A stretch of 64,000 nucleotides of DNA from Bacteroidaceae bacterium (GCA_963599445.1 CAVBWZ010000012.1:11811-75810); one strand, 5' to 3'; positions 8,562-59,900 are shown, counted from the first letter of the stretch. Notes: generated by a model from the sequence alone, not told the origin. Program-made: numbers and translations.

Positions 8562-9796
8562 GTCTTGGGGCTGACATGATTGCAATACTAGAGGGAAAGG
8601 AAAGGAACCTGTTCAAACACCACCCATGGGTCTTTTCAGGAGCCATGGACGCTTCGACTCTGCCTGCATGTGCAGGTGTGGAGAAGGTCGTAGCCTACGA
8701 TGGGCGCTTCATAGCTTGGGGTTGGTACGACAAGGACAGTCATATTCCTCTACGTCTTCTTTCGTGGAAGGAGGACGACATGCCGGACTCTGCATGGTGG
8801 GAGAGAAGCGTCCGCGAGTCCGTGCTGAGAAGAAAGTCCTTCTTCAGCGATATGTCGTCATCCACCAATGTCTTTAGGATAATCCATGGGGAGGCTGACC
8901 TCCTGCCAGGGCTTGTATCCGATGTCTACGGACGCATCGTGCGAATCATCGTGAGCGCCCGTGTGGCATGGGATATGCGAGAGGTCGTCGTACGTGCCAT
9001 AGAGGGGCTCTTGCACCCTCAGATGATAATCCTCAATACGGATTCCGCCTTCTGTGCCATAGAGAAGCTCCATGAGGTCGTGGAGTACTACCAAGGTGGT
9101 GTTCGCTTCACTCCAGCAGAGAAACTTCCTGAGATGCGCATACGAGAGGACGGCATCTGCTACGGCCTTGTGCCGGGAACGGGGCAGAAGAGCGGCTTCT
9201 ACTGCGACCAGCGCGAAAACCGCAGACGCCTTGAGCAATACGTCAAGGATGCGGTGGTCTTCGATGGCTGCTGCTACACCGGTGGCTTTACGTTGCATGC
9301 CCTTCGTGGTGGCTGCAGAAAGGTGGATGCATTCGACAGCTCGGCCGATGCCGTTCACAGACTTCTTTCCAATGTTCATTTGAACGTGGATCTTGGCGTC
9401 CTTCCTTCGTCCTCGTTGGAGAGGGTGACGGCAAACAAGGCCGATATCTTTGAGACCTTGCGTTCGATACCCCGCAATGCATACGATGTGATGATTCTTG
9501 ACCCTCCAAAGCTTGCACAGACCATCAAATCTCTTGAAAGCGCGAAGAAGGCATACAAGGACCTCAACAGGCTTGCCATGGAGAAGATTCGCAGCGGAGG
9601 CATCCTCATGACCTGTTCCTGCTCAGGCTCGCTGAAACGTGAGGATTTCAGGACGGTTCTTGCCTGGAGTGCAAAGGACGCCGGCGTAGAGGTTCAGATC
9701 CTTGAGACCCTTGGCCAGGGCATGGACCATCCCGTGCGTATGTCGTTTCCAGAGAGCGAATACTTGAAGGCATACATCCTTAGGGTGATAAAGTAG
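8558..9796 (+). CDS. class I SAM-dependent rRNA methyltransferase (RlmI-like, PUA + MTase)
   Basis: HPWVFSGA N-terminal PUA-like start, [10 protein letters not shown], and the DPPKL motif of RlmI/YccW-type 23S rRNA m5C methyltransferases. Alternative start ATG 8576. Confidence 0.7.
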
Positions 9797-17027: not shown

Positions 17028-17693
17028 ATGAGCGTCTTGCAGACAATCAATCTCAAAAAATACTACGGCACGAAGCCAAACATTGTCCGTGCGCTGGACG
17101 GCGTGAATTTCTCCGTGGACGATGGCGAGTTCGTTGCGGTCATTGGAGCCTCCGGCAGCGGCAAATCCACGCTTCTCAATATGATAGGCGGTCTGGATAC
17201 CCCCACCTCTGGCCGCGTGATTGTGCGCGGACAGGATTTGGCAGGGATGGATGACGAAGCGTTGACGCTGTTTCGGCGGCGTAATATTGGCTTTGTCTTT
17301 CAGAATTACAATCTCGTTCCAATGCTGAGCGTACAGGAAAACATTGTTCTGCCTGTGGAGCTGGACGGGCATACCGCAGAACGCAGTTTCCTGGAGGACA
17401 TCGTTTCCATGCTGGGGCTGAAAGACCGGCTGTATGCCATGCCGAATACACTTTCAGGAGGTCAGCAGCAGCGCGTCGCCATTGCCCGCGCCCTGATTAC
17501 CAAACCGGCTATCATTCTAGCCGATGAGCCTACCGGAAGTCTGGACAGCCAGACCAGCACAGATGTGCTGGAGCTGCTTCGGCGCAGTAGCCGCCAGTTT
17601 CACCAGACCATCGTGATGATTACCCACAATGACTCCATCACCCGCCTTGCGGATAGAATCGTATGCATTGGTGACGGCAGGATTGTGGGATGA
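17028..17693 (+). CDS. ABC transporter ATP-binding protein (MacB/LolD-like)
   Basis: Walker [10 protein letters not shown], signature LSGGQQQR, Walker [12 protein letters not shown] 17028 lies 7 nt after GAGGAGGG. Confidence 0.9.
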
Positions 17694-19726
17694 GGGGCGG
17701 TGCTATGAAGAAGAAGGCTATTACCCCCATCGTAAAGACGGTTGCCAAACGGGATATGCGTCCTGACAGTATCAAAAATGTATTTTCCCTGCTGACGGTC
17801 TGCCTTGTGACGGCGCTTCTGCTGTCGCTGGCACTCTATGAAAGCGGCTATGAAACAGCAAAGGACAGAGCCGCCGCAGGACAACCGCAGGTCGTTTTCT
17901 GCGACCTCTCCGTACAGCAGGCCGCAGCCCTGCAAGCGGATGAAGATATTACTTCCATCACTCTGAACGAATCAGAGAATGGCTTGGATGCGTCAGTTAC
18001 GCTTTTCGGTGCGGAGAAAATGACGCAGACCGGATTTTCGGATTATATTGCTGAGATCAGTGCAAAGTACGGCATCTGTCACCCTGTAAAGAACACCATG
18101 TTTCTGGACAGCCTATCGGACGGCAACCTGTTCAGTTCCGAACGGCTGCTCCTTGTGGGTGTGGCGTTGTTTGTCCTGCTGGTCAGCGCACTGGTAATCT
18201 ACAATATCTTCTACTTGTCCATAACGATGCAGATTCGACAGTTTGGGCAGTTCCGCACCATCGGAATGACCGCAAAACAGATCAGCGGCATCATCCGTAC
18301 AGAGCGGAAGCTGCTGTGCAGACGGGCAATTCCGGTTGGTCTGGTGATTGGAACATTCATTGCCTACTTGTTGCAGCCAAAAGGCTTTGCATGGAAACCT
18401 GTGGTTCTGTGGGGCCTCGTGATTGCTCTGGTGGTTGCGTTGGTAGTGCAGCTTGCGCTCAATCAGCCCACCAAAATCGCCAGCAGTGTTATACCAGCAC
18501 GTTCTGCAAGGTTTTTTGAAGGTGCATCTGAAAATCGCATACCGCGAAGTAAAAAACGGAAGCTGTCTGCGTGGGGGCTTGCGCGAATCCATGTGACAGG
18601 CAGCCGCAAAAAGGTTATGGTGTCTGTGCTTTCTCTGGCTCTCAGCGGACTGCTGTTCACGCTGGCTGCAACCTATACGACCTCCGTAGATGCGAAGACC
18701 ATTGTAGAGCGGGAGCTTTACCAATACGGCCAATTTATCGTGGAAGAATCAGGACTGTACACGCAATCCGCACCGGAGCTGGACAATCTGACCTCTCGGA
18801 TCACGAAGCTCCCTGGTGTGCAAGGCATCGAAAAAGTCACCGAAACCAGCATCAACTGGTCTACGGGTGGTAGCAGCGATGCTGATCAGCTTTCCATCAT
18901 CGAAGCGGACGATATGCAGATGATCCAGCCATTTGTCAGAAGCGGCGAGGCCGATTATCAGCAGTTGGTAGCGGAAAACCAAGTCCTTGCCGTGGACGGC
19001 GCAGAGGGTGTTTCCATTGGTAGCTCCGTTGCGCTGATCTTTGAAGATGGCATAACGCAGCAATATACTGTTGGGGCAATACTGGACGATGGCATTTACC
19101 ATGATACTGCGGTATATGGTGGCTGGTTTCTGCTTCCGCGAGAGCTGCTGCCCGAAACGCCGGGGATGTTTGCAGTTTCTACAAAGTTGATTGTCGATGC
19201 GGACAATGCCGAATTAAGCAATGTCGAAGCTGATTTGAGGGATTTGCTTAAAACCTCCAATCAGGCGACTTTGACCACCAAGCAGGAGGCTATCATTGAA
19301 AAGGATGCCGCCATTCGCCAAGTTAGCCTGTCCGTTGTGGGGATTACGCTGCTGTTTCTCTGTTTCAGCATCCTGATTTTTGCCAACACGATTCTGATGA
19401 ACATTATTGTCCGAAAAAATGAGTACGCCATGCTGCAATCCATCGGCATGACCTACCGACAGGTTCGGGCAATGCAGATTATGGAGAGTATTCTGGAAGC
19501 GGGGGTTGGATTTGTTATTACACTGGTGCTGGGCATTATCTTCGGAATCGGGATGATTCAGGTTTTGACGCGCATGGGGATGTTCTATCTGGCCTATACA
19601 TTCCCGTCTGCCATGTTCGCCCTGTACTGCGCCATCACGTTGATTGTCATGTTCGCCATTACATTCATTGCGTTCAATTCCATGCAGAAAGCGCCGCTGG
19701 TCGAGCGTATGCGGACAGTAGAGTGA
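17690..19726 (+). CDS. ABC transporter permease, FtsX/MacB family (BceB-like size)
   Basis: 678 aa, multi-TM, with two FtsX-type 4-helix modules and a large extracytoplasmic loop. Start overlaps the ATPase stop. Confidence 0.8.
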   Translation: MRGGAMKKKAITPIVKTVAKRDMRPDSIKNVFSLLTVCLVTALLLSLALYESGYETAKDRAAAGQPQVVFCDLSVQQAAALQADEDITSITLNESENGLDASVTLFGAEKMTQTGFSDYIAEISAKYGICHPVKNTMFLDSLSDGNLFSSERLLLVGVALFVLLVSALVIYNIFYLSITMQIRQFGQFRTIGMTAKQISGIIRTERKLLCRRAIPVGLVIGTFIAYLLQPKGFAWKPVVLWGLVIALVVALVVQLALNQPTKIASSVIPARSARFFEGASENRIPRSKKRKLSAWGLARIHVTGSRKKVMVSVLSLALSGLLFTLAATYTTSVDAKTIVERELYQYGQFIVEESGLYTQSAPELDNLTSRITKLPGVQGIEKVTETSINWSTGGSSDADQLSIIEADDMQMIQPFVRSGEADYQQLVAENQVLAVDGAEGVSIGSSVALIFEDGITQQYTVGAILDDGIYHDTAVYGGWFLLPRELLPETPGMFAVSTKLIVDADNAELSNVEADLRDLLKTSNQATLTTKQEAIIEKDAAIRQVSLSVVGITLLFLCFSILIFANTILMNIIVRKNEYAMLQSIGMTYRQVRAMQIMESILEAGVGFVITLVLGIIFGIGMIQVLTRMGMFYLAYTFPSAMFALYCAITLIVMFAITFIAFNSMQKAPLVERMRTVE

Positions 19727-49399: not shown

Positions 49400-49627
49400 A
49401 TGGACACTGCAAAGGTTTTCGAAAACGGGAGGAGCCAGGCTGTAAGGCTTCCAAAGGATTTCAGATTCAAGGAGGACGAGGTGTTTGTGAATAAGATTGG
49501 TGATGTTGTGTTTTTGGTTCCAAAGGACAGCCCTTGGAGTGGGACCATGGCTGGTCTTGCAATGTTCTCTGGCGATTTCATGGAGGGCGGACGCAACCAA
49601 GGGGAGTTCGATGAAAGGTCGCTATGA
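49400..49627 (+). CDS. vapB: type II antitoxin VapB (AbrB/SpoVT fold)
   Basis: [19 protein letters not shown] is the canonical AbrB-type VapB start. Overlaps vapC by 4 nt. Confidence 0.85.
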
Positions 49628-50022
49628 GATACATGCTTGATACGAATATTTGCATATATGCAATAAAGAAGAGTCCAAAGAGTCTTTTGAATAGGCTTTC
49701 ACGTTGCGAGCCGGGGGACTGCTGCATCTCGTCCATAACTTTCTCCGAGCTTATGTATGGAGTGGAGAAAAGTTCGTCGCCAGAGAGGAATCGCATGGCT
49801 CTTGCATTGTTCCTTTCCTCCTTGGAGGTCCTTTGTTTCGATTCCAACGCTGCAATAGAGTTTGGGGACATCAGGGCTTCTTTGGAGAGAAAAGGACTTC
49901 CTATAGGACCAATGGACACCCTCATAGCAGCACATGCACGTTCGAGAGGGCTTGTGCTTGTGACTAACAATGGAAGGGAGTTCTCTAGGGTGGATGGTCT
50001 TTTGTTGGAGAATTGGGTGTAG
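49624..50022 (+). CDS. vapC: type II toxin VapC (PIN-domain ribonuclease)
   Basis: [10 protein letters not shown], the acidic PIN residues and C-terminal LVLVTNN.EF. Confidence 0.9.
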
Positions 50023-50277
50023 CCGGCTCCTTTGTGTTGCAAAAATGTTGCAGCCTGACCGGTCTGTTGCTTTTGTGTTGCCAAAATAACGCTTTTGAAA
50101 ACTTGTGGGGCATCGCAAACGACGGAGGAGAAAGTTTTATGGCAAAGGCAAGGATACTGTGGTATACTGCCTGTATCAAACTAGTGGGCGTTGGAAGATT
50201 GTGCATAGGGGTCTTGGACAAAAGTCTCATAGCCGTGTACGTTGGACGACGAAGACATCATTCCTTGGAGGTATGAA

Positions 50278-50874
50278 ATGGAAGAAAAGAAGAACATCGG
50301 CAAGCTGCTTTTGGGTGAGTGGAACACGAAGACGATTGTTGCCGTCGCTGTTGGTGCAGCTCTGTTCGGAGTCCTTATGTGCTACGGTGGAATCCCTGTA
50401 TTCACGAATACGAGCCTTACGACCGCAATGCTTGTGCCTGTCATCGTAGGCGGTCTCTTTGGACCTCTTCCTGCATTCGTCGCAGCAGGCGTGGGCAACG
50501 TGATCGCTGACCTCATCGGCGGTTGGGGAATGTGGTTCGACTGGTCCGTTGGAAACGCCGTCATGGCTTTCTGCGTTGGACTTCTTCCAGTCTACGGTGC
50601 AAACATCAAGGAAGGCGTGTTCGAAGTCAAGCACATGATCATCTATGCAATATGCTGCATTCTTGGAAACGTGATTTCGTTTGGAGTCATAACACCAATC
50701 TTCACGGTTCTCTTCTATGGTGGAGACCTTGAGGTTACGTTCCTCCAGGCTTTCGCCGCAACCGTTGGAAACTTCGCAGTTCTGGTCGTGGTTGGCATAC
50801 CTGTACTCAAGGTCCTTGCAAACCGCTACAAGTCAAGGTCCAACCTGGCTCAGGAGCACAGTGACAACTACTGA
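50278..50874 (+). CDS. ECF transporter S (substrate-capture) component, specificity unknown
   Basis: 198 aa with about 6 TM. Gly-rich helices are typical of S components. ATG 50278 follows TTGGAGG. Followed by ECF A and T genes. Confidence 0.7.
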   Translation: MEEKKNIGKLLLGEWNTKTIVAVAVGAALFGVLMCYGGIPVFTNTSLTTAMLVPVIVGGLFGPLPAFVAAGVGNVIADLIGGWGMWFDWSVGNAVMAFCVGLLPVYGANIKEGVFEVKHMIIYAICCILGNVISFGVITPIFTVLFYGGDLEVTFLQAFAATVGNFAVLVVVGIPVLKVLANRYKSRSNLAQEHSDNY

Positions 50875-50890
50875 TCCTGTTCTGTGGATT

Positions 50891-50922
50891 GGGGCTGTTG
50901 TATGGCAACAGCCCCTTTTTTT
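50891..50922 (+). terminator. strong rho-independent terminator between the S gene and the ATPase gene
   Basis: GGGGCTGTTG / CAACAGCCCC perfect 10-bp stem, 5-nt loop, then TTTTTTT. Confidence 0.75.
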
Positions 50923-51009
50923 GGTTTTCCGTTCGATTGCTTGGAGATTGCTTGGGCAATTGGACGAGGAAGCTTTGACATCATCCAAAAACAATGATAG
51001 GAACGATCA

Positions 51010-52806
51010 ATGGCTGATACGGTAATCAGATTCAAGGACTTTGGGTTCCAGTACAAGGTTCAGCAGAAACCTACGCTGTACGATATAAACCTGGAGATTC
51101 ACAAAGGGGAGAAGGTCCTGATCCTTGGAGGGTCAGGCAGTGGAAAGTCCACATTGGCCAACTGCATAAACGGTCTCATCCCATTTTCATACGAAGGAAC
51201 CATAACGGGGTCCGTTGAGGTCAACGGACATGAAACCAAGGGTTCTTCCATATACAAACTCAGCAAGGAAGTTGGAACGGTCCTCCAAGACAGCGACGCC
51301 CAGTTCGTTGGCCTTTCGGTTGCTGAAGACATAGCCTTTGCAATGGAGAACGAGTGCATACCGCGTTCCCAGATGGTCCCCATCGTTGAGGAGCATGCCG
51401 CAACGGTTGGCATGCAGGACTTCCTTAAGGCTGTGCCGTTCGACCTTTCAGGAGGTCAGAAGCAAAAGGTTGGCATTGCAGGTGTCCTTGGAAGCAACGT
51501 GGACATCCTCATATTCGATGAGCCTTTGGCGGCTTTGGACCCCAGAATGGGTGAGACGGCCATAGAGCTCATAGACCAGCTTGCTCAGGACAAGGACAGG
51601 ACTATAGTCATCATAGAGCACAGACTGGAGGATGTTCTTCATAGACGAGTGGACAGGATCATCCTCATGTCGGAAGGCCGCATAGTGGCGGACACGACAC
51701 CGGATGACATCCTCAAAGGCACGCTTCTTCAGCAGTATGGCATCAGAGAACCGTTGTACATAACCGCAATGAAGTATGCCGGCTGCGATCTTGAAGGAAA
51801 CGATGGCCTAAGCAGCATAGACAATGTGGTATTCTCTAATGAAAGCCGTGAAAGACTCCTCCGTTTCTTTGAGAGCGAGGTTGAATCGCACGAGCCTCAT
51901 CCTGGCGACGAACTTGTATCCGTGAAGGATGTGTCCTTCTCCTACGATGACAGCCGCAAGGTCCTTGAAGACGTTTCGTTTACAATCCGCAAAGGCGAAC
52001 GCATAGCCGTAGTTGGCAGAAACGGTGCTGGAAAGTCCACGGCCGCAAAGCTCATATGCGGAATCTGCCGTCCAAACAAGGGTTCCATAACCATAGACGG
52101 CAAGGATGCCAAAGGTCTTTCCATAAAGGAGATTGGAGAGCGCGTTGGCTATGTCATGCAGAACCCCAACCAAATGATCGTGAAGGACACCATAAAGAAC
52201 GAGGTCGAATATGCGCTTACGCTGCGCAACATGCCAAGGGAGCAGATAATAGCCCGCGCAACGGATGCACTCAATGCCTGCAGCCTCTTTCCAATGCGCA
52301 ACTGGCCTGTGGATACGGTGAGCTATGGTCAGAAGAAAAGGATAACGGTTGCATCCATACTGGTGCTTCAGCCAGATGTGATAATCCTTGACGAGCCGTC
52401 TGCCGGTCAGGACTACAGAAGCTACACGGAGATCATGAAGTTCCTCGACGTCCTAAACAAGGAGTACGGCAAGACCATCGTGTTCATAACCCATGACATG
52501 CACCTCGCTCTGGAGAACACTGACAGAGCCATAGTCTTCACTGATGGAAGGCTTCTCAAGGACGACAGGACGTTTGCAGTGCTTGCGGACAACGATACAA
52601 TAGAAAAGGCCAACCTCAAGCAGACATCCCTCTACAGACTTGCCCAAAGGCTTGGACTCGAACCTGAAAGGGTCATACGCCATTTCATAGACTATGAGAA
52701 CTACAAAGGCCGCAAAGGCTCAAAGCCTGAAGCAATGCTTGAAGACGGAGAACCTGAAACTGTAGAACCCATAGGCCAGAATGCAAAGGAGGGAGAACGG
52801 TCATGA
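51010..52806 (+). CDS. ECF transporter duplicated ATPase (EcfA-EcfA' fusion, YkoD-like)
   Basis: Two ABC cassettes: [21 protein letters not shown] and GRNGAGKST/VSYGQKKR/LDEP. Confidence 0.9.
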   Translation: MADTVIRFKDFGFQYKVQQKPTLYDINLEIHKGEKVLILGGSGSGKSTLANCINGLIPFSYEGTITGSVEVNGHETKGSSIYKLSKEVGTVLQDSDAQFVGLSVAEDIAFAMENECIPRSQMVPIVEEHAATVGMQDFLKAVPFDLSGGQKQKVGIAGVLGSNVDILIFDEPLAALDPRMGETAIELIDQLAQDKDRTIVIIEHRLEDVLHRRVDRIILMSEGRIVADTTPDDILKGTLLQQYGIREPLYITAMKYAGCDLEGNDGLSSIDNVVFSNESRERLLRFFESEVESHEPHPGDELVSVKDVSFSYDDSRKVLEDVSFTIRKGERIAVVGRNGAGKSTAAKLICGICRPNKGSITIDGKDAKGLSIKEIGERVGYVMQNPNQMIVKDTIKNEVEYALTLRNMPREQIIARATDALNACSLFPMRNWPVDTVSYGQKKRITVASILVLQPDVIILDEPSAGQDYRSYTEIMKFLDVLNKEYGKTIVFITHDMHLALENTDRAIVFTDGRLLKDDRTFAVLADNDTIEKANLKQTSLYRLAQRLGLEPERVIRHFIDYENYKGRKGSKPEAMLEDGEPETVEPIGQNAKEGERS

Positions 52807-53723
52807 ACAATAGGTTTCTGATAAACTTCACCCCCGGCAACACGATGATGCACAAGCTTACAGGAGGCACCAAGGTTCTGCTGTTCGTGCTGTTTACGGT
52901 TGCCATAATAGCTACGTTCGATGTAAGGGTCATAGCTCTTCTTGCCATCCTGCCAATAGCCGCAATCATATCGATGAAGCCCAACTACAAGCCAATAAGG
53001 TTCATGATAGGCTTCATGGTGCTGGTGGTTGGCGTGATAGGTTCGCTCATGCTTCTGCTTGTATCTCCTGATGCAGGACTTACAAACGTTGGCGGCAGCA
53101 CCGTGATATGGCGCCTTGGAGAGAACTTCTTCGTCACCAAGGAGACCCTTTGGTACATATTCGCAATGTTCGTCAAAAGGCTTGCCTCGTTCATGGTCGT
53201 CATAGCCTTCGTGCTTGCAACGACTCCAAGCGAGTTCGCATCGGGCTTGGCCTTCCTGCACGTACCATACAAGGTGTGCACCATCGTCTCCCTTGCATAC
53301 AGGACCATCCCCGACATAGCAAGACGCTACACGGACATAAAGAACAGTATGCAGATGCGCGGCGTGGAGCTCTCGAAGAAAGCCTCCCTTGGAAAGAGGC
53401 TCAAGGCCACCGCAGCGTTGTTGGTTCCGCTTGTCGTATCATCGTTTGGCAAGGTGGAGGTCATAGCCAACGCAATGGACCTCAGGGGTTTTGGACGCCT
53501 CAAGAAAAGGACTTGGTACTCCGAGCACGAACTCACCAAGGCTGACAAAGTTCTGAGGAAGCTTTGCATCCTGTTCGCAGTTGGAATCGTGGCCTACATC
53601 GTATGGTTCAGAATCATAAATCCATGGCCTGTAACATATTGGAGTCCATTCATCGCCCGCAAGGACATAGTCAAGGTAGGGCGTTTCGAAACCCTGTCCA
53701 TCCTCAAGTGGTTTGGCAAATAG
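52803..53723 (+). CDS. ecfT: ECF transporter transmembrane (T) component
   Basis: Polytopic membrane protein with the two x-R-G coupling motifs (MQMRGV, MDLRGF). Start overlaps the ATPase stop. Confidence 0.85.
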   Translation: MNNRFLINFTPGNTMMHKLTGGTKVLLFVLFTVAIIATFDVRVIALLAILPIAAIISMKPNYKPIRFMIGFMVLVVGVIGSLMLLLVSPDAGLTNVGGSTVIWRLGENFFVTKETLWYIFAMFVKRLASFMVVIAFVLATTPSEFASGLAFLHVPYKVCTIVSLAYRTIPDIARRYTDIKNSMQMRGVELSKKASLGKRLKATAALLVPLVVSSFGKVEVIANAMDLRGFGRLKKRTWYSEHELTKADKVLRKLCILFAVGIVAYIVWFRIINPWPVTYWSPFIARKDIVKVGRFETLSILKWFGK

Positions 53724-53759
53724 GCATCACGACAAGGCCGCTTCAACAAGGAGTTCGCA

Positions 53760-54599
53760 ATGAAGAGAGCAATAGTACTACAGACCGATTTTGGCGAAGG
53801 CAGCGTATCGGTATCCACAATGAAGGGTGTCTGCAGAATCGTCGATCCAACGCTTGAGGTATTCGATTCAACGCACAGCGTAAGGCAGTTCGATGTCCTC
53901 AAGGCAAGCGACGCCCTGTTCTACGTGATACCTTTCTGGCCTGCCGGGACTGTGTTCGTATCCGTCGTCGATCCAGGGGTTGGAACGTCCCGCAGATCGT
54001 GCGTTGCGCTTTTGGAGAACGGAAGCTACGTTGTGACTCCGGACAACGGTACGCTCACATACATGAAGGATAGGATTGGCATAAAGCAGGTTAGGGAGAT
54101 AGACGAGTCCGTGAACCGCTATCCAACGACCCGTGACGTACACATCTTCCATGGAAGGGATGTCTATGCCTATACCGCCGCCCGTCTTGCGAGCGGGGTG
54201 ATCGACTACGAGGGTGTAGGTCCTGAATATCCTGTTGACCAAATCGTCGAAGCCCCTTATGTAAGGCCGGAGAAGAGGGCGGGCGAAGTCTACGGAATGA
54301 TCGCCGACTCCTCCAAGCACTTTGGACTTGTCACTACGAACATTCCGTTCCGCTGGCTGTCTGAATGCGGTATGGAATATGGCGACAACGTAAGGATACG
54401 CATCGAGCATGCAGGACAGTGCGTCCTTGAAGAGGTCGTCCCAATTGCAAAGAGCTTTGGATTCGTGCCCGATGGCAGCGATTTGGTCTACAACTCGGAG
54501 ACTTCCATGATAGAGGTTGCCACGAACCGCAGGAACATGGTCGTGGAACGCAATCTTGGAGATGGCGCGGACTGGACTCTAAGAGTTAGAAAGGTTTGA
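53760..54599 (+). CDS. DUF62 SAM hydrolase / SAM-dependent halogenase family protein, paralog 1 (motifs intact)
   Basis: LQTDFG, VVDPGVGTSRR, TPDNGTLT and FHGRDVYAY motifs. 279 aa. AAGGAG RBS. Confidence 0.85.
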   Translation: MKRAIVLQTDFGEGSVSVSTMKGVCRIVDPTLEVFDSTHSVRQFDVLKASDALFYVIPFWPAGTVFVSVVDPGVGTSRRSCVALLENGSYVVTPDNGTLTYMKDRIGIKQVREIDESVNRYPTTRDVHIFHGRDVYAYTAARLASGVIDYEGVGPEYPVDQIVEAPYVRPEKRAGEVYGMIADSSKHFGLVTTNIPFRWLSECGMEYGDNVRIRIEHAGQCVLEEVVPIAKSFGFVPDGSDLVYNSETSMIEVATNRRNMVVERNLGDGADWTLRVRKV

Positions 54600-54613
54600 A
54601 AGGAGCATTCGAT

Positions 54614-55450
54614 ATGGAGAACACAAGGAAATCGGTCCCAAATGGTGGACTTGTGGCCGTGCAGAGCGACTATGGCATGGGCGGTGAGGCCTGCAGGATC
54701 GTTGGCAGCATATTGTCTACAAGTCCAAACACGACCGTGTACGATGTGACAAGTGCAATTCCCAAAGGGGATGTCGCCACGGCTTCGTGTGCAATGTATT
54801 CGTTCTTCCAGTTCTTCCCTGTGGGAAGCGTGTGCCTTTCCCTTGTCGGCGAAGGAAGGCCTTGTGTCGTGAGGACTGCACAGGGACGGTACATAGTGAC
54901 GCCTGACAACGGCACGCTTACGGCTTGGTACTCCAAGTTCCCATTCGAGGACGTTCGTGAGGTTGACCTTGCCTGCGCACCTGATGGCTGCATCCCCCTT
55001 GCATGGGCCGCAGCCCGTCTTGCAAGTGGGAAGTGTTCCTTCGAGGACATGGGGCCTGCTTATCCTGCAAAGGACATAGTGCTCATCGACGCCAAGCCTG
55101 CAAAGGTTGGGGACGGCATTGTTGAGTGCGGGGTGTTCAGTCTTGTAAGGAACTTTGGGAACCTGAACCTGAGCGCCACATACGAGGAGTTCGAGAAGTC
55201 AGGCATACGCTTTGGAGACCATGTCAATGTTCTGATGCGTAGGGATGGTGATGAAATATTCAACGAGGATATGCTTTACGAGCATTCTTTTGGATTTGCA
55301 AAGCCAGGCGACCCGATCCTTTTCAATGGAAGCACCGGCTACATGGGACTGGGGCTCAATCTTGAAAGCTTCGTCTCCAAGTATATGCCTGAGTCAATGC
55401 AGGAAGGGTTCGACCTGTCTCGCTATGAGATTGTTATAAGAAGGATCTGA
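54614..55450 (+). CDS. DUF62 family protein, paralog 2 (catalytic motifs degenerate)
   Basis: Keeps SDYG and TPDNGTLT. Has SLVGEGRP where DPGVGTSR is expected and CAPDG where FHGRD is expected. Confidence 0.7.
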   Translation: MENTRKSVPNGGLVAVQSDYGMGGEACRIVGSILSTSPNTTVYDVTSAIPKGDVATASCAMYSFFQFFPVGSVCLSLVGEGRPCVVRTAQGRYIVTPDNGTLTAWYSKFPFEDVREVDLACAPDGCIPLAWAAARLASGKCSFEDMGPAYPAKDIVLIDAKPAKVGDGIVECGVFSLVRNFGNLNLSATYEEFEKSGIRFGDHVNVLMRRDGDEIFNEDMLYEHSFGFAKPGDPILFNGSTGYMGLGLNLESFVSKYMPESMQEGFDLSRYEIVIRRI

Positions 55451-55454
55451 AGAT

Positions 55455-56381
55455 ATGCAAGAGAATTGTGCAGCTAATCATGCAAATGCAGATAAGCCAG
55501 ACATCGTCCTCATGACGGACTTTGGACTTACGACGGGTTTCGTAGGTTCCATGTATGGGGTCATACGCAAAGTGGACCAGAGCCTTGGGGTGTTCGACCT
55601 GAACCATGAGATACGCCCATATGACATGCGTCAGGCTGCGTTTCTGCTTTCAGACACCGTCATGTACTGGAAGGACGGCACTGTGTTCGTGTCCGTCGTG
55701 GATCCTGGCGTTGGAACATCCCGTCGCTCGTGCGTGGCGCTTCTTGACAACGGAAGCTACATTGTCACACCTGACAACGGAACGCTCACTGCTGTGAAGG
55801 ACCATGTGGTTGCGGTTCGTGAGATAGACGAGAAGGTCAACCGCCTCTCTGGATCAGAGCGTGCCAACAGCTTCCATGGTCGTGATGTCTATGCCTATAC
55901 CGCAGCCCGTCTTGCAAGCGGAGTGATCGACTACGAGGGGGTCGGGCCTGAGTATCCTGTAGATGAAATAGTGCTGTTCCCACAGACCAAGGGCCACGTG
56001 GAACCAGGTCTTGCAAAGGGGCATCTCACAGGATGCCTCAAGCACTTTGGCTCCCCTGAGACCGATATTTCCGTGGTTGACTTCGAGAAGACCGGCATAG
56101 TGTACGGCGACATGGTCCATGTCCGCATTTCAAAGGGCGGAAGAGTTCTCTTCGATATGCCAGTGCTCTATCATAAGTCGTTTGGATTCGTGCCTGAAGG
56201 CGAGCCCATTCTGTGCAATGGAAGCACCAGCCCGTACATGGAGATAAGCCTTAACAAGCGCAGTTTCGCCCAAAAGTACCTTCCAGACATCTTCGATGAC
56301 GGGGAGGTGTTTACAGACTATTCTATCGAGATTTCAAAGCTATCGGGCTATGATGCCCCACAGCTTTCCAAGGAGGCGTGA
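55455..56381 (+). CDS. DUF62 SAM hydrolase / halogenase family protein, paralog 3 (motifs intact)
   Basis: MTDFG, VVDPGVGTSRR, TPDNGTLT and FHGRDVYAY. 308 aa. Confidence 0.85.
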   Translation: MQENCAANHANADKPDIVLMTDFGLTTGFVGSMYGVIRKVDQSLGVFDLNHEIRPYDMRQAAFLLSDTVMYWKDGTVFVSVVDPGVGTSRRSCVALLDNGSYIVTPDNGTLTAVKDHVVAVREIDEKVNRLSGSERANSFHGRDVYAYTAARLASGVIDYEGVGPEYPVDEIVLFPQTKGHVEPGLAKGHLTGCLKHFGSPETDISVVDFEKTGIVYGDMVHVRISKGGRVLFDMPVLYHKSFGFVPEGEPILCNGSTSPYMEISLNKRSFAQKYLPDIFDDGEVFTDYSIEISKLSGYDAPQLSKEA

Positions 56382-56382
56382 T

Positions 56383-56874
56383 ATGAAACCATTTGTCGTG
56401 ATGCAGACCGATTTTGGTGTAGGTGGCGGTGGTGCCATGTATGGCGTGTGCAAGACGATTGACCCTGACCTTGGAGTCTATGACCTGAGCCATGTCATTC
56501 CAAAGTTCAATGTGGAGGCGGCGTCCAAGTCCTTGGTGTCAGTGATTCCATACTGGCCCGTTGGAACCGTGTTCGTGTCCGTCGTGGACCCAGGTGTTGG
56601 AACATCAAGGTGCGCATGCGTTGCAAAGACATCCAACGGCTACTATGTGGTCACGCCTGACAACGGCACGCTTACGCTTCTCAAGAAGGAGTTTGGCATA
56701 GATGCAGTCAGGGAGATAGACGAGACGGTCAACCGTCTCAAAGGCACGGAGAAGACAAGCATCTTCCATGGCAGAGACCTCTTTGCATACTGTGCAGCCC
56801 GCTTGGCCTCTGGAGTGATAGACTTCGAAGGGGTAGGGCCGCAGTATCCAGTGGAGGAGATTGTACTTTACTAG
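56383..56874 (+). CDS. DUF62 family protein, paralog 4, N-terminal domain only
   Basis: 163 aa with QTDFG, DPGVGTSR, TPDNGTLT and FHGRD. Ends at ...YPVEEIVLY* where paralogs 1 and 3 continue into a C-terminal domain of about 110 aa. AGGAGG RBS. May be a truncation or pseudogene. Confidence 0.6.
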   Translation: MKPFVVMQTDFGVGGGGAMYGVCKTIDPDLGVYDLSHVIPKFNVEAASKSLVSVIPYWPVGTVFVSVVDPGVGTSRCACVAKTSNGYYVVTPDNGTLTLLKKEFGIDAVREIDETVNRLKGTEKTSIFHGRDLFAYCAARLASGVIDFEGVGPQYPVEEIVLY

Positions 56875-56924
56875 TTCAAGAGAGGCGTTTCAGAAAGTGC
56901 TTCAGAAGGCGAGTCCGTTGGATG

Positions 56925-57812
56925 TCAGGCCTTCTGGAGCTTTATGGCCCAGTTCTCGCCGGATCCAATCCTGTACTCCTGCGCAAAGCTTCCTTGGTTG
57001 AGTGCAAGGCCCACGTTCAAGAGACTGTTTATGTAAAGAAGCGGTTCGCCTATCTCCACCTCAGTGAAGTTCCTGCACATGCGCATCGTATAGCCAAAGA
57101 CTATCTTGTGGTTGTGGCTTATGAGAACCCTCACATCGTCTCCGTACTTGATGCCGTACTGCTCAAAGATCATGGTGTCAGGTATGTTCGTCCAAAGGCT
57201 GCCGTAGCGGGTGTCTAGGACGTCTATGTTTCCACAGACCTCTCCGCCTTCTATGACTGGGTCAGATACGTTGAGCATGACAGGGTTCGGTTCAAGGAGA
57301 GGTCCTACTTCGTCGAACGTTATGGTCCCGCTTGCAATCCTGGCTCCAGTGTATGCATACACGTCACGTCCATAGAATGTGAACGACCTTTGGCTGTTCT
57401 TGAGTCTGTTGACGGTCTCGCTTATCCTTCGCCTTTCAAGGATTCCAATCTCCTTTGCGACATGTGACAAGGTTCCGTTGTCAGGTGTTACTATGACGTG
57501 CCCTGACTTTGTAAGCACCGCCACGCTTTCGCGCTCCGATCCCACTCCTGGGTCTACGACTGATACGAAAACGGTTCCGGGTGCCCAGAACGACATCGTT
57601 TGTATGAGTCTGTAGCTTGCCTCCCATATGTTGAACTGGGGGATTTCATGCGTAAGGTCTTCAAGTTTGAGGTTATGGTCCACTTCGTCCGCAACTCCAT
57701 GCATGGCGCTCACAGCTCCGTCCACATATCCAAAGTCCGACATGAACACAACCGTACCCTTTTTCGTCCATGGTGCAAGCTCCTTGAGCTCCTTTGCGCT
57801 TTCGTATGTCAT
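56925..57812 (-). CDS. DUF62 family protein, paralog 5 (His to Tyr in the FHGRD motif)
   Basis: MSDFG, VVDPGVGSER, TPDNGTLS and FYGRDVYAY. ATG 57812 lies 7 nt after GGAGG; the ORF opens at 57932. Confidence 0.8.
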   Translation of the reverse strand: MTYESAKELKELAPWTKKGTVVFMSDFGYVDGAVSAMHGVADEVDHNLKLEDLTHEIPQFNIWEASYRLIQTMSFWAPGTVFVSVVDPGVGSERESVAVLTKSGHVIVTPDNGTLSHVAKEIGILERRRISETVNRLKNSQRSFTFYGRDVYAYTGARIASGTITFDEVGPLLEPNPVMLNVSDPVIEGGEVCGNIDVLDTRYGSLWTNIPDTMIFEQYGIKYGDDVRVLISHNHKIVFGYTMRMCRNFTEVEIGEPLLYINSLLNVGLALNQGSFAQEYRIGSGENWAIKLQKA

Positions 57813-57849: not shown

Positions 57850-58293
57850 TCATCGCCCAATGATTTTTTGGACCTCGCCGATGTCAAGTGAAGCACATTT
57901 TGCAATGGTTGGGATTGGGATTCCATTTGCATTCATCTCCTTGACCATGCGGCTTCTTTCGTTGGAGACACCTCTGGCCTCTCCAATGGAGATTCCCTCG
58001 GCCTCACCGGCGGTTCTACCCTCATCGTATTTGTCCTTTAGAAGGAACTCCAGCTTCATGTACTCTTTCCTCCAGTCGTCGTCTCTGTTGTACTTCTGCA
58101 CATATTTGTCCAGAATGGTCACAAGCCCGCTTCTGGTCTCCATGCCTATGGCTCCGACACCGCCGTTCAGATACCTGAACAGCTCGTCCATGTCCAGGTT
58201 GGAGACACCCTTGGAGCCTCTGCTGTTCAGGAACATGATATATCTACGGTCCCCAAGTGGCAAGCCTTGGACGTTCTCGCAGATGGTTGCAGC
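57850..58293 (-). pseudogene. C-terminal fragment of an Rpn/YhgA-like (PD-(D/E)XK) recombination-promoting nuclease/putative transposase
   Basis: ...CENVQGLPLGDRRYIMFLNSRG...REYMKLEFLLKDKYDEGR..GIPIPTIAKCASLDIGEVQKI matches the C-terminal half of the family. The N-terminal nuclease core is absent. Confidence 0.55.
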
Positions 58294-58424
58294 TAAGGAA
58301 CTGGAGGCTGATTGGCAAAGACATGTTGAGGACTAATACTAAAGATCAATCCAAACCGTTCTTGACGATGCAAAGGTCGACTGATACCATTGTAATTGAA
58401 AGCCCGAGAAAGAATAAATACAGG

Positions 58425-59900
58425 ATGGTGAAAACAATGATCGACCGCTGGATTGCGGAGGCGACCGAGTGTGATTTCAAGGTTGCCTTGGAGGTGAAAA
58501 AGCCGAAAAGCTGGCTCAAAAGTGTCAGTGCCTTTGCAAACGGCATTGGTGGAACGTTGTTTTTTGGTGTTGACAATGATAGGAATATTGTCGGTCTATC
58601 TGATGTGCAGAATGATGCTGAAACGATTAGTCGATTGATCAAAGAGCGGATTACACCTTATCCCGATTTTATTCTCAAACCAGAACGTAAGGACTGCGAG
58701 GATGTTCTTGTGTTGTCTGTGTCTGCAGGGCGCTCCACGCCATATTACTACAAGGCAGACGGTATTATGGAGGCCTATATACGTATCGGCAATGAAAGCG
58801 TGATTGCTCCGTCCTATGTCCTGAATCAACTCATTCTGAAAGGAATGCACCGTTCCTACGACGAATTGGTTTCCGAGTATTATTTCAATGATTACTCTTT
58901 TTCTAAATTACGTGAGCGCTATAAGGCTTGGACTGGTAATGGCATGGAGGAAAAGCTGTTCGATTCCTTTTGTATGCGGAACGAAAACGGCAAGTTGACC
59001 AATGCTGGTGCTCTGCTTGCAGATGATTCTCCCATCAGGCATTCCCGCCTGTTCTGTACGCGTTGGAATGGAATTGATAAAAGCGGTGGCGTAGTAGATG
59101 CACTTGACAGTGCAGAATACTCCGGCAGTCTGATTATTCTACTCAATGAAGGTGTCAGCTTTGTCAGGCGGAATATGAAGACACTTTGGAAGAAAACCAC
59201 TGATTCCCGCATTGAGATGCCTGACTACTGTGAGCGAAGCGTCTTTGAAGCTCTTGTGAATGCGCTGATTCATAGGGATTACCTGATTCTTGGCAGTGAG
59301 GTTCACATTGACATCTACGATGACCGCCTTACAATCTGTTCTCCTGGCGGTATGGCAGATGGTACCAGGATACAGGAACGAAATCTGCTCAGCATTTCCT
59401 CTACGCGTCGCAATCCCGTTTTGGCGGATATTTTTGGGCGATTGGGCTATATGGAGCGGCAAGGCAGTGGCTTTAGGAAAATCATGGAAACGTACCATGC
59501 TGCACACAATTATCATGACGAATTGGAGCCCCAATTCTATTCTGATGCTAGCTTCTTTCAAGTTACGTTGTATAACTTGAATTACGGGCAGGCAATCGAG
59601 AAAACAGGCCTTCAAGACGAAAAACAGGCCTTCGAAAATGAAAAAACAGGCCTTCAAGACGAAAAACAGGCCTTCGAGAACCTGCTGATGGGGCTTGAGA
59701 GCAGTACACCGACCAGGGAAAACATTCTGAAACTGTTCTTGCATTTCGGTTTCGGCAATGCTTTTGCAAGGGCCGATGTTATGAAGGTTACAGGAATAAC
59801 GGCTACCCCTGCAACGGAGCTTATGCGAAAGATGAAGGACGCAAAGTTGATCGAGAACGGAATGGGTCGAGGGAAATATGTTTTTACAGAACCTAAATGA
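58425..59900 (+). CDS. AlbA_2/Schlafen-like DNA-binding domain + HATPase_c_4 + wHTH protein ('RecG-like' putative transcriptional regulator)
   Basis: ECDFKVALEVKK...SAFANGIGGTLFFGVDNDRNIVGL (AlbA_2) and LVNALIHRDY...SPGG (ATPase-like). Start is 58425 or 58437. Codon usage is unlike the backbone. Confidence 0.7.
   Translation: MVKTMIDRWIAEATECDFKVALEVKKPKSWLKSVSAFANGIGGTLFFGVDNDRNIVGLSDVQNDAETISRLIKERITPYPDFILKPERKDCEDVLVLSVSAGRSTPYYYKADGIMEAYIRIGNESVIAPSYVLNQLILKGMHRSYDELVSEYYFNDYSFSKLRERYKAWTGNGMEEKLFDSFCMRNENGKLTNAGALLADDSPIRHSRLFCTRWNGIDKSGGVVDALDSAEYSGSLIILLNEGVSFVRRNMKTLWKKTTDSRIEMPDYCERSVFEALVNALIHRDYLILGSEVHIDIYDDRLTICSPGGMADGTRIQERNLLSISSTRRNPVLADIFGRLGYMERQGSGFRKIMETYHAAHNYHDELEPQFYSDASFFQVTLYNLNYGQAIEKTGLQDEKQAFENEKTGLQDEKQAFENLLMGLESSTPTRENILKLFLHFGFGNAFARADVMKVTGITATPATELMRKMKDAKLIENGMGRGKYVFTEPK
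59598..59681 (+). repeat. in-frame 2 x 42 bp tandem duplication (each itself 2 x 21 bp)
   Basis: GAGAAAACAGGCCTTCAAGACGAAAAACAGGCCTTCGAAAAT then GAAAAAACAGGCCTTCAAGACGAAAAACAGGCCTTCGAGAAC, encoding EKTGLQDEKQAFEN twice. Confidence 0.9.

Follow-up and report, generated by a model that had tools for sequence, protein, structure and literature searches.

Energy-coupling factor (ECF) systems are importers. Those of group I, such as YkoEDC, MtsTUV and MtaTUV (TCDB 3.A.1.29, 3.A.1.30 and 3.A.1.33), comprise an S component (the substrate-capture subunit) of about 195 aa, a fused A-A' ATPase and a CbiQ-type T component, all encoded together. A module of the same composition (S-A-T) was found in the stretch of DNA analysed here, which is 64,000 nucleotides long and assigned to a Bacteroidaceae bacterium (GCA_963599445.1 CAVBWZ010000012.1:11811-75810; hereafter the window). 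The module and five genes of the DUF62 family, designated D1, D2, D3, D4n and D5, occupy positions 50278–57812 of the window. Unlike the described group I importers, modules of the window type have between one and six DUF62 genes beside them in nearly all cases, in dozens of gut and anaerobe species, and this linkage together with the divergence of the paralogs suggests an import-and-cleave route, as yet unstudied, for compounds like S-adenosylmethionine (SAM).

In the reaction of DUF62 enzymes, hydroxide takes the place of a sulfonium leaving group on C5'. In the DUF62 hydrolases water is activated by an Asp-Arg-His triad (D68-R75-H127 in PH0463) (PMC4859513, PMC10491745), and the solved homologs are trimers in which each active site is formed where an N-domain meets the C-domain of the adjacent protomer (PMC12120602). 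The window proteins resemble the (R)-SAM hydrolases PH0463, MJ1651, the TTHA homolog and Salinispora StDUF62 (EC 3.13.2.3) in the two-domain architecture and in the triad, which is present in D1, D3 and D4n. Unlike these hydrolases, the window set is multi-copy, position-specific and importer-linked, with one class devoid of the triad and another devoid of the C-domain.

The SAM-dependent halogenases SalL and FlA are a second group for comparison. The window DUF62 proteins are predicted to share their fold and their SN2 chemistry at C5', and D5 and SalL both have Tyr at the position that aligns with the triad His of the hydrolases. In contrast to the halogenases, D5 keeps the Asp and Arg of the triad, and no natural-product gene cluster surrounds the locus. 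The scores of the window paralogs against the fluorinase equivalog TIGR04507 were 28–82 bits with a cut-off of 400; together with the triad kept in three of the proteins, this does not place them among the halogenases.

No paper linking DUF62 with ECF transporters in the relevant sense was found in the literature searched. To our knowledge, a DUF62 kit of several classes, its triad-less and half-length subunits, their co-occurrence and operons that combine a SAM riboswitch with DUF62 and ECF genes have not been described, and we know of essentially no description of free-living bacteria taking up SAM. What DUF62 proteins do physiologically is openly disputed, and the linkage to an importer and, in some species, to a SAM riboswitch leads to a concrete hypothesis, namely the salvage of exogenous SAM-like compounds for methionine and adenosine.

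Linkage of the ECF module to DUF62 genes

All eight genes of the original prediction, namely those for the S component, the fused double ATPase, the T component, four DUF62 proteins on the same strand and one convergent DUF62 protein, were recovered as called. Open reading frames (ORFs), profile searches and exact matches in the public protein collection with the same start sites (198, 598, 306, 279, 278, 308, 163 and 295 aa) agree on these calls. The intergenic distances given there were also reproduced: the ATPase and T genes overlap by 4 nt, the gaps are 36 nt between T and D1, 14 nt between D1 and D2, 4 nt between D2 and D3 and 1 nt between D3 and D4n, and a 50-nt spacer separates the convergent genes D4n and D5.

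The S component (50278–50874, plus strand, 198 aa) belongs to a subfamily of PF07155 (E-value 5.5e-30) and scored 129 bits against NCBIfam PRK13661, with a cut-off of 99. The ATPase (51010–52806, plus strand, 598 aa) contains two ABC_tran domains and DUF3744 and exceeds the cut-offs of both ECF equivalogs (TIGR04520, 430 versus 315 bits; TIGR04521, 367 versus 330 bits). The T component (52803–53723, plus strand, 306 aa) is of the CbiQ family (PF02361, E-value 6.5e-26), and its gene starts within the 4-nt overlap with the stop codon of the ATPase gene. Judging by these matches, the three proteins constitute a group I ECF importer with a dedicated module, the import direction being presumed from the common property of the ECF family. 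Modeling of the S component using AlphaFold2 (pLDDT 82.5, pTM 0.81) predicted the generic six-helix S-component fold, and a fold search with this model returned the S components FolT, RibU, ThiT, BioY and PanT with TM-scores of 0.5–0.66.

To evaluate the linkage, one genome per species was scanned with the S-component profile, and the resulting 80 loci (S identity 62–99%), which represent this S-component subfamily within PF07155, were annotated using hidden Markov models built from the window proteins. Forty-nine loci were informative, having at least 2.5 kb on each side of the segment from S to T. DUF62 genes adjoin the S-A-T module in 46 of the 49 species-level loci; the number of copies was zero in 3 loci, one in 6, two in 18, four in 8, five in 12 and six in 2. 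Thus, the coupling of the transporter to DUF62 is real and conserved and is not a local accident, in line with the original prediction of an ECF transporter wired to a DUF62 array. The same counts contradict its assumption that several DUF62 copies are unusual, since in the ECF-linked subfamily the multi-copy state is the norm.

The carriers include metagenome-assembled genomes (MAGs) labelled Oscillospiraceae, Christensenellaceae, Erysipelotrichaceae, Lachnospiraceae and Spirochaetota as well as cultured Diplocloster and Thermoclostridium. With D for a DUF62 gene, the layouts included S-A-T-D-D-D-D-Dn, S-A-T-D-D-D-Dn, D-D-S-A-T, S-A-T-X-D-D and D-S-A-T-D. The layout of the window was repeated in contigs of human-gut (Hadza) metagenomes, and another Oscillospiraceae MAG contained S-A-T, four full-length DUF62 genes, a gene for a 168-aa protein with the N-domain only and one divergent copy. 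A reverse check, starting from a DUF62 query of type A (see below), arrived at an S-A-T-M20-DUF62 locus of the cultured Anaerocolumna sedimenticola, whose genome is complete. This species, three species of Diplocloster and Thermoclostridium caenicola are cultured carriers that make experiments feasible.

Four canonical DUF62 genes similar to 2ZBU, from Thermotogota and Atribacterota (Thermotoga, Mesotoga, Atribacter and Fervidobacterium), were used as a control; all are single-copy and have no S-A-T module beside them. The Fervidobacterium gene was considered as a possible ECF-linked case, being accompanied by an M20 gene and a lone CbiQ gene after an insertion sequence, and was rejected, since the neighbouring 186-aa protein is not an S component.

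Some MAG labels are discordant with the similarity of the S components. Five loci (L007, L008, L009, L022 and L068) have S components 84–99% identical to that of the window and come from MAGs labelled Sphaerochaeta/Spirochaetales, Bacteroidaceae and Coriobacteriaceae, and the identity of the window-like S components to those of Bacillota loci is 62–76%. These labels would be explained by mis-binning or else by a lateral transfer of the cluster as a whole.

Classes of DUF62 paralogs

The two-domain architecture SAM_HAT_N plus SAM_HAT_C was found in four of the paralogs, with E-values of 7.8e-43 and 2e-11 for D1 (53760–54599, plus strand), 3.2e-17 and 4.1e-8 for D2 (54614–55450, plus strand), 1.5e-46 and 2.7e-9 for D3 (55455–56381, plus strand) and 5.8e-45 and 1.1e-18 for D5 (56925–57812, minus strand). 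D4n (56383–56874, plus strand, 163 aa) contains SAM_HAT_N (E-value 7.6e-44) and no SAM_HAT_C, and in the alignment of the five paralogs it ends exactly at the interdomain linker. Going by these profile matches, five DUF62 genes inside 4 kb cannot be a product of chance. The best PDB match of the paralogs was 2ZBU (E-value 1.4e-37). Several DUF62 proteins (PDB 7ccg; P0374, P0407, P0475 and P0477) are publicly named 'DNA-directed RNA polymerase subunit delta', which looks like a propagated misannotation.

The motif table and the alignment showed that the paralogs differ in their catalytic residues. The original prediction attributed some or all of the family motifs to each of the five proteins. 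In D1 and D3 the triad is intact and the FGN motif of the C-domain is replaced by FGL and FGS, respectively. In D2 both DPGVGTSR and FHGRD have disappeared entirely and all three triad residues are missing; the ribose-binding Asp, PDNG and the FGN motif of the C-domain are retained. D5 has FYGRD, that is, Tyr in place of the triad His, and YGS in the C-domain. D4n has the intact triad and lacks the C-domain that completes the active site in the solved family members. Consequently, the earlier description of the array as an expanded set of SAM-cleaving enzymes requires correction, as these are not five equivalents, and D2 is likely a non-catalytic subunit.

A loss of this kind could also indicate decaying genes. 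The ratio of nonsynonymous to synonymous substitution rates (dN/dS) was calculated against three conspecific or near-conspecific loci (dS 0.2–0.9) and ranged from 0.013 to 0.086 across all eight window genes, with values of 0.02–0.03 for the S component and 0.013–0.028 for D5. For D2 it was 0.06–0.08 (0.08–0.09 in the N half and about 0.05 in the C half) and for D4n 0.03–0.06, which is the same range as in the transporter genes. The public cluster of D4n has 118 members; among the 15 listed, a length of 163 aa is shared by 14, and the remaining one has 145 aa. D2 and D4n are therefore under strong purifying selection and are not pseudogenes, a reading that the conserved length additionally excludes for D4n. 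As a separate observation, the locus L014 (10324–10910, Clostridium sp. CAG:1024) has two ORFs of 123 and 129 aa in place of a single N-only DUF62 gene, which is due to a frameshift or an assembly error.

A comparison of the related loci indicates that the paralog classes are old and position-specific. In the five-gene arrays, the genes d1, d2, d3 and d4 map to the classes c1, c2, c3 and c4, respectively, in 16 of 16 loci each, and d5n maps to an N-only class of its own in 15 of 16. D1 shares 57–81% identity with c1 proteins, D2 33–82% with c2 and D3 51–83% with c3; these are the classes to which the three were assigned. The two-gene systems consist of type A (DFTY ... FGN) paired with type B (DFGL ... 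FGS). D5 was attributed to type B, its best matches (53–78% identity) being type B, u1r and d4r. D4n is 71–80% identical to the N half of the full-length c4 (d4) and 39–64% identical to the usual N-only d5n, so the half-size subunit arose separately in the window lineage.

Triad-less and N-only members are present together in 26 loci and absent together from 37, and N-only members without triad-less ones were found in two loci (L025 and L080, the latter ended by a contig edge), while triad-less members never occur alone; these counts are not phylogenetically independent, which weighs against a functional interpretation, although the same pairing is seen in three array types. A stricter rule, according to which the numbers of intact N-sites and intact C-sites would be equal, fits many arrays and fails in others, e.g., L025 and L005, and is not claimed.

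The losses in the paralogs are complementary: c2 has no N-side triad and keeps the C-side FGN, c1 has the triad and no C-side Asn, and D4n contributes an N-side only. Since the active site spans two protomers in the solved homologs, a triad-less full-length subunit could donate its C-domain to a subunit consisting of the N-domain alone. These complementary losses and the interprotomer active site fit hetero-oligomers better than five independent homo-trimers. In these losses, all of them in genes under purifying selection, the window set resembles enzyme/pseudoenzyme hetero-oligomers that arose by complementary degeneration; for the window set, such an assembly is proposed from sequence patterns. 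If they do form such complexes, the conserved triad-less and half-length subunits would illustrate complementary degeneration in an enzyme with a two-protomer active site.

Alternatively, each paralog could be an independent homo-trimeric enzyme acting on its own 5'-substituted nucleoside, all supplied by one importer, which was the second option of the original prediction. The low pairwise identity of the five window paralogs (28–63%) combined with the conservation of every class across genera speaks for it, as does the class-specific residue of the C-domain that contacts the base (Leu, Asn, Ser or Gly). However, D2 and D4n could not work as homo-trimers because the triad is missing in the former and the C-domain in the latter, and both are nevertheless maintained by purifying selection and occur with each other. 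Taken together, independent enzymes seem an unlikely solution, and the hetero-oligomeric arrangement is used in the following as the preferred one.

Regulation and the putative substrate

Rfam analysis of 25 related loci revealed SAM-I riboswitches (RF00162) in four Oscillospiraceae species, located directly upstream of the first DUF62 gene of a DUF62-DUF62-S-A-T-FGase operon (L029, 7637–7733; L034, 8033–8129; L035, 8030–8126; L050, 519–619; 77–81 bits with a gathering threshold of 44.4), and in no other locus of the 25. When 79 sources, among them the window, were searched with a covariance model built from these four elements, no additional copy came up; with an effective sequence number of 0.88 the model is a narrow one, and divergent copies may escape it. 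In thirteen other loci a divergently oriented gene for a GntR/UTRA regulator is present instead of a riboswitch. The locus L084 of Thermoclostridium caenicola contains a lysine riboswitch (9358–9531, minus strand, 104 bits) that adjoins the S gene and faces away from it and presumably controls the divergent neighbour.

Riboswitches of the SAM-I class turn genes off when SAM is abundant. The operons under such control are thus expected to be active under a shortage of SAM or methionine, which is how a salvage importer would behave, and the presence of SAM-I at orthologous operons ties the system to the supply of SAM and methionine. In having some orthologs under SAM-riboswitch control, the window module is similar to what would be expected of a methionine-related ECF system. 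The original prediction proposed import-and-cleave salvage and would have been contradicted by an S component tied to a vitamin riboswitch unrelated to SAM; no such tie was found, and the orthologous operons of four species carry SAM-I, as a salvage route of this kind would predict, although the window itself does not.

For the substrate, the reaction and the assembly, we infer the following scheme. The dedicated ECF importer would take up an adenosyl-sulfonium compound, most likely exogenous SAM, including its inactive (R)-sulfonium epimer. In the cytoplasm, DUF62 proteins would cut the C5'-S bond by hydroxide attack with the formation of adenosine and methionine. The DUF62 set would be a fixed kit of diverged subunit classes, namely c1, the triad-less c2, c3, the half-length c4 and type B, which probably assemble into hetero-oligomers. 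We give about even chances to the view that the S-AA-T module and the DUF62 proteins act as one such unit for adenosyl-sulfonium import and C5'-S cleavage.

A number of observations weigh against this scheme. The predicted fold of the S component is uninformative with respect to the substrate. All paralogs scored far below the cut-offs of the (R)-SAM hydrolase equivalogs NF058624 (45.9–125.5 versus 350 bits) and NF053629 (32–101 versus 470 bits), which makes activity of the paralogs on SAM an extrapolation. Three of the four C-domains of the window (c1, c3 and type B) carry another residue in place of the adenine-contacting Asn of FGN, so the ligand may differ from adenosine. The window has neither a SAM riboswitch nor a conserved leader, and SAM-I occurs in only 4 of about 72 species. 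Finally, operons with one or two DUF62 genes, among them those controlled by riboswitches, carry a gene for an FGase-family amidohydrolase (PF05013, 12 loci) or an M20 dipeptidase similar to Sapep/PepV (at least 9 loci); examples of such genes are L041, 13142–13933; L036, 8069–8851; L047, 8614–9984; and L091, 6491–7912. These two amidohydrolases are mutually unrelated and suggest a substrate with an amide bond. As SAM lacks one, the actual substrate may be a conjugate related to SAM.

Another methionine-related compound could be imported, for example 5'-methylthioadenosine (MTA), with the DUF62 genes simply belonging to the same regulon. The MtaTUV system presumably has the same S, fused AA and T architecture and may even be the module described here. 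Its prediction reportedly comes from Rodionov et al. 2009. TCDB lists MtaTUV as a putative methylthioadenosine ECF family (3.A.1.33; PMC3654945), and SAM-riboswitch control would suit an importer for any kind of methionine salvage. On the other hand, MTA is a thioether without the sulfonium leaving group used by DUF62, neither a nucleosidase nor a phosphorylase for MTA is a recurrent neighbour in the related loci, and the synteny with DUF62 is too tight for mere co-regulation. The import of MTA or another methionine precursor thus appears quite improbable.

Even less probable, in our estimation, is a separation of functions, with the DUF62 proteins repairing endogenous (R)-SAM and the transporter serving an unrelated compound, for instance a B6 vitamer. 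The characterised DUF62 enzymes are indeed (R)-SAM hydrolases (PMC10491745), and PF07155/COG4720 contains the B6 transporters PdxU and HmpT (PMC9997740). A gene of the pyridoxal/HMP-kinase family (PF08543; 46485–47390) lies 3 kb upstream of the S gene on the same strand, which is compatible with a vitamin B6 function, but it is confined to the window species, being kept only in the conspecific loci L001–L004. The similarity of the window S component to PdxU and HmpT is limited to the shared Pfam family, with no specific likeness to these proteins and no B6 regulon, and sequence and profile searches against PDB gave no matching chain, neither HmpT nor any other solved S component, even at E-values up to 10. 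It would also make little sense for a repair enzyme to be shut off by SAM-I at high SAM, and a linkage that holds in 46 of 49 informative loci and in different phyla speaks for one common pathway.

Within the preferred reading, that of an adenosyl-sulfonium importer acting together with the DUF62 proteins, a more specific variant concerns the epimers of SAM. Extracellular SAM should be partly epimerised, and a coupled (R)-SAM hydrolase would both detoxify and salvage it. It is conceivable, albeit doubtful, that free-living anaerobes use the locus to take up SAM, with obligatory coupling of the ECF importer to a hetero-oligomeric DUF62 hydrolase made of catalytic, triad-less and half-length subunits, which would sort or cleave the incoming sulfonium epimers ('import and proofread'). 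If this variant is true, the physiological role of DUF62 extends beyond the repair of intracellular (R)-SAM.

Transcription signals and surroundings of the locus

A weak promoter-like site (50139–50168, plus strand; 9/12 consensus positions with an extended TG) precedes the S gene by about 110 nt. A strong terminator-like hairpin followed by a T-run (50891–50922, plus strand) separates the S gene from the ATPase gene, with an 11-bp stem at 50891–50915 containing seven G-C pairs and a T7 tail. Of 77 related loci, 21 have a comparable hairpin in this position; in the others, S and A mostly abut, and a few have a gap of at least 70 nt and no hairpin. The strength of this hairpin suggests that the S gene may be partly independent of the genes that follow in the unit, and a possible role is that of an attenuator raising the level of S relative to the module. 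The tight packing from the ATPase gene through D4n is consistent with a single transcript. D5 is convergent and transcribed separately, and it has its own promoter-like site (57860–57887, minus strand; TTGACA-16-AATCAT, 10/12 positions, a consensus match only).

An Rfam search of the whole window at gathering thresholds returned nothing, and a search of the S leader at E-values up to 10 gave only chance-level matches, the best of which was the hairpin between S and A. When the 220 nt preceding S were aligned for 12 array-type loci, the mean column identity was 34% and no conserved element was seen; the alignment thus provides no evidence of a new leader RNA.

Just upstream of the S gene, at 49624–50022, there is an ORF of 132 aa with a VapC/PIN-like N-terminus. 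It was not called in the conspecific metagenome loci L001–L004, where the spacer is about 450 nt shorter. Strains also differ downstream of D5: the window encodes a protein with Schlafen/AlbA_2 and HATPase_c_4 domains (58257–59900), and the Hadza contigs L001–L004 contain PDDEXK_2 at 17576–18451. The DNA bordering the locus beyond D5 is a variable spot.

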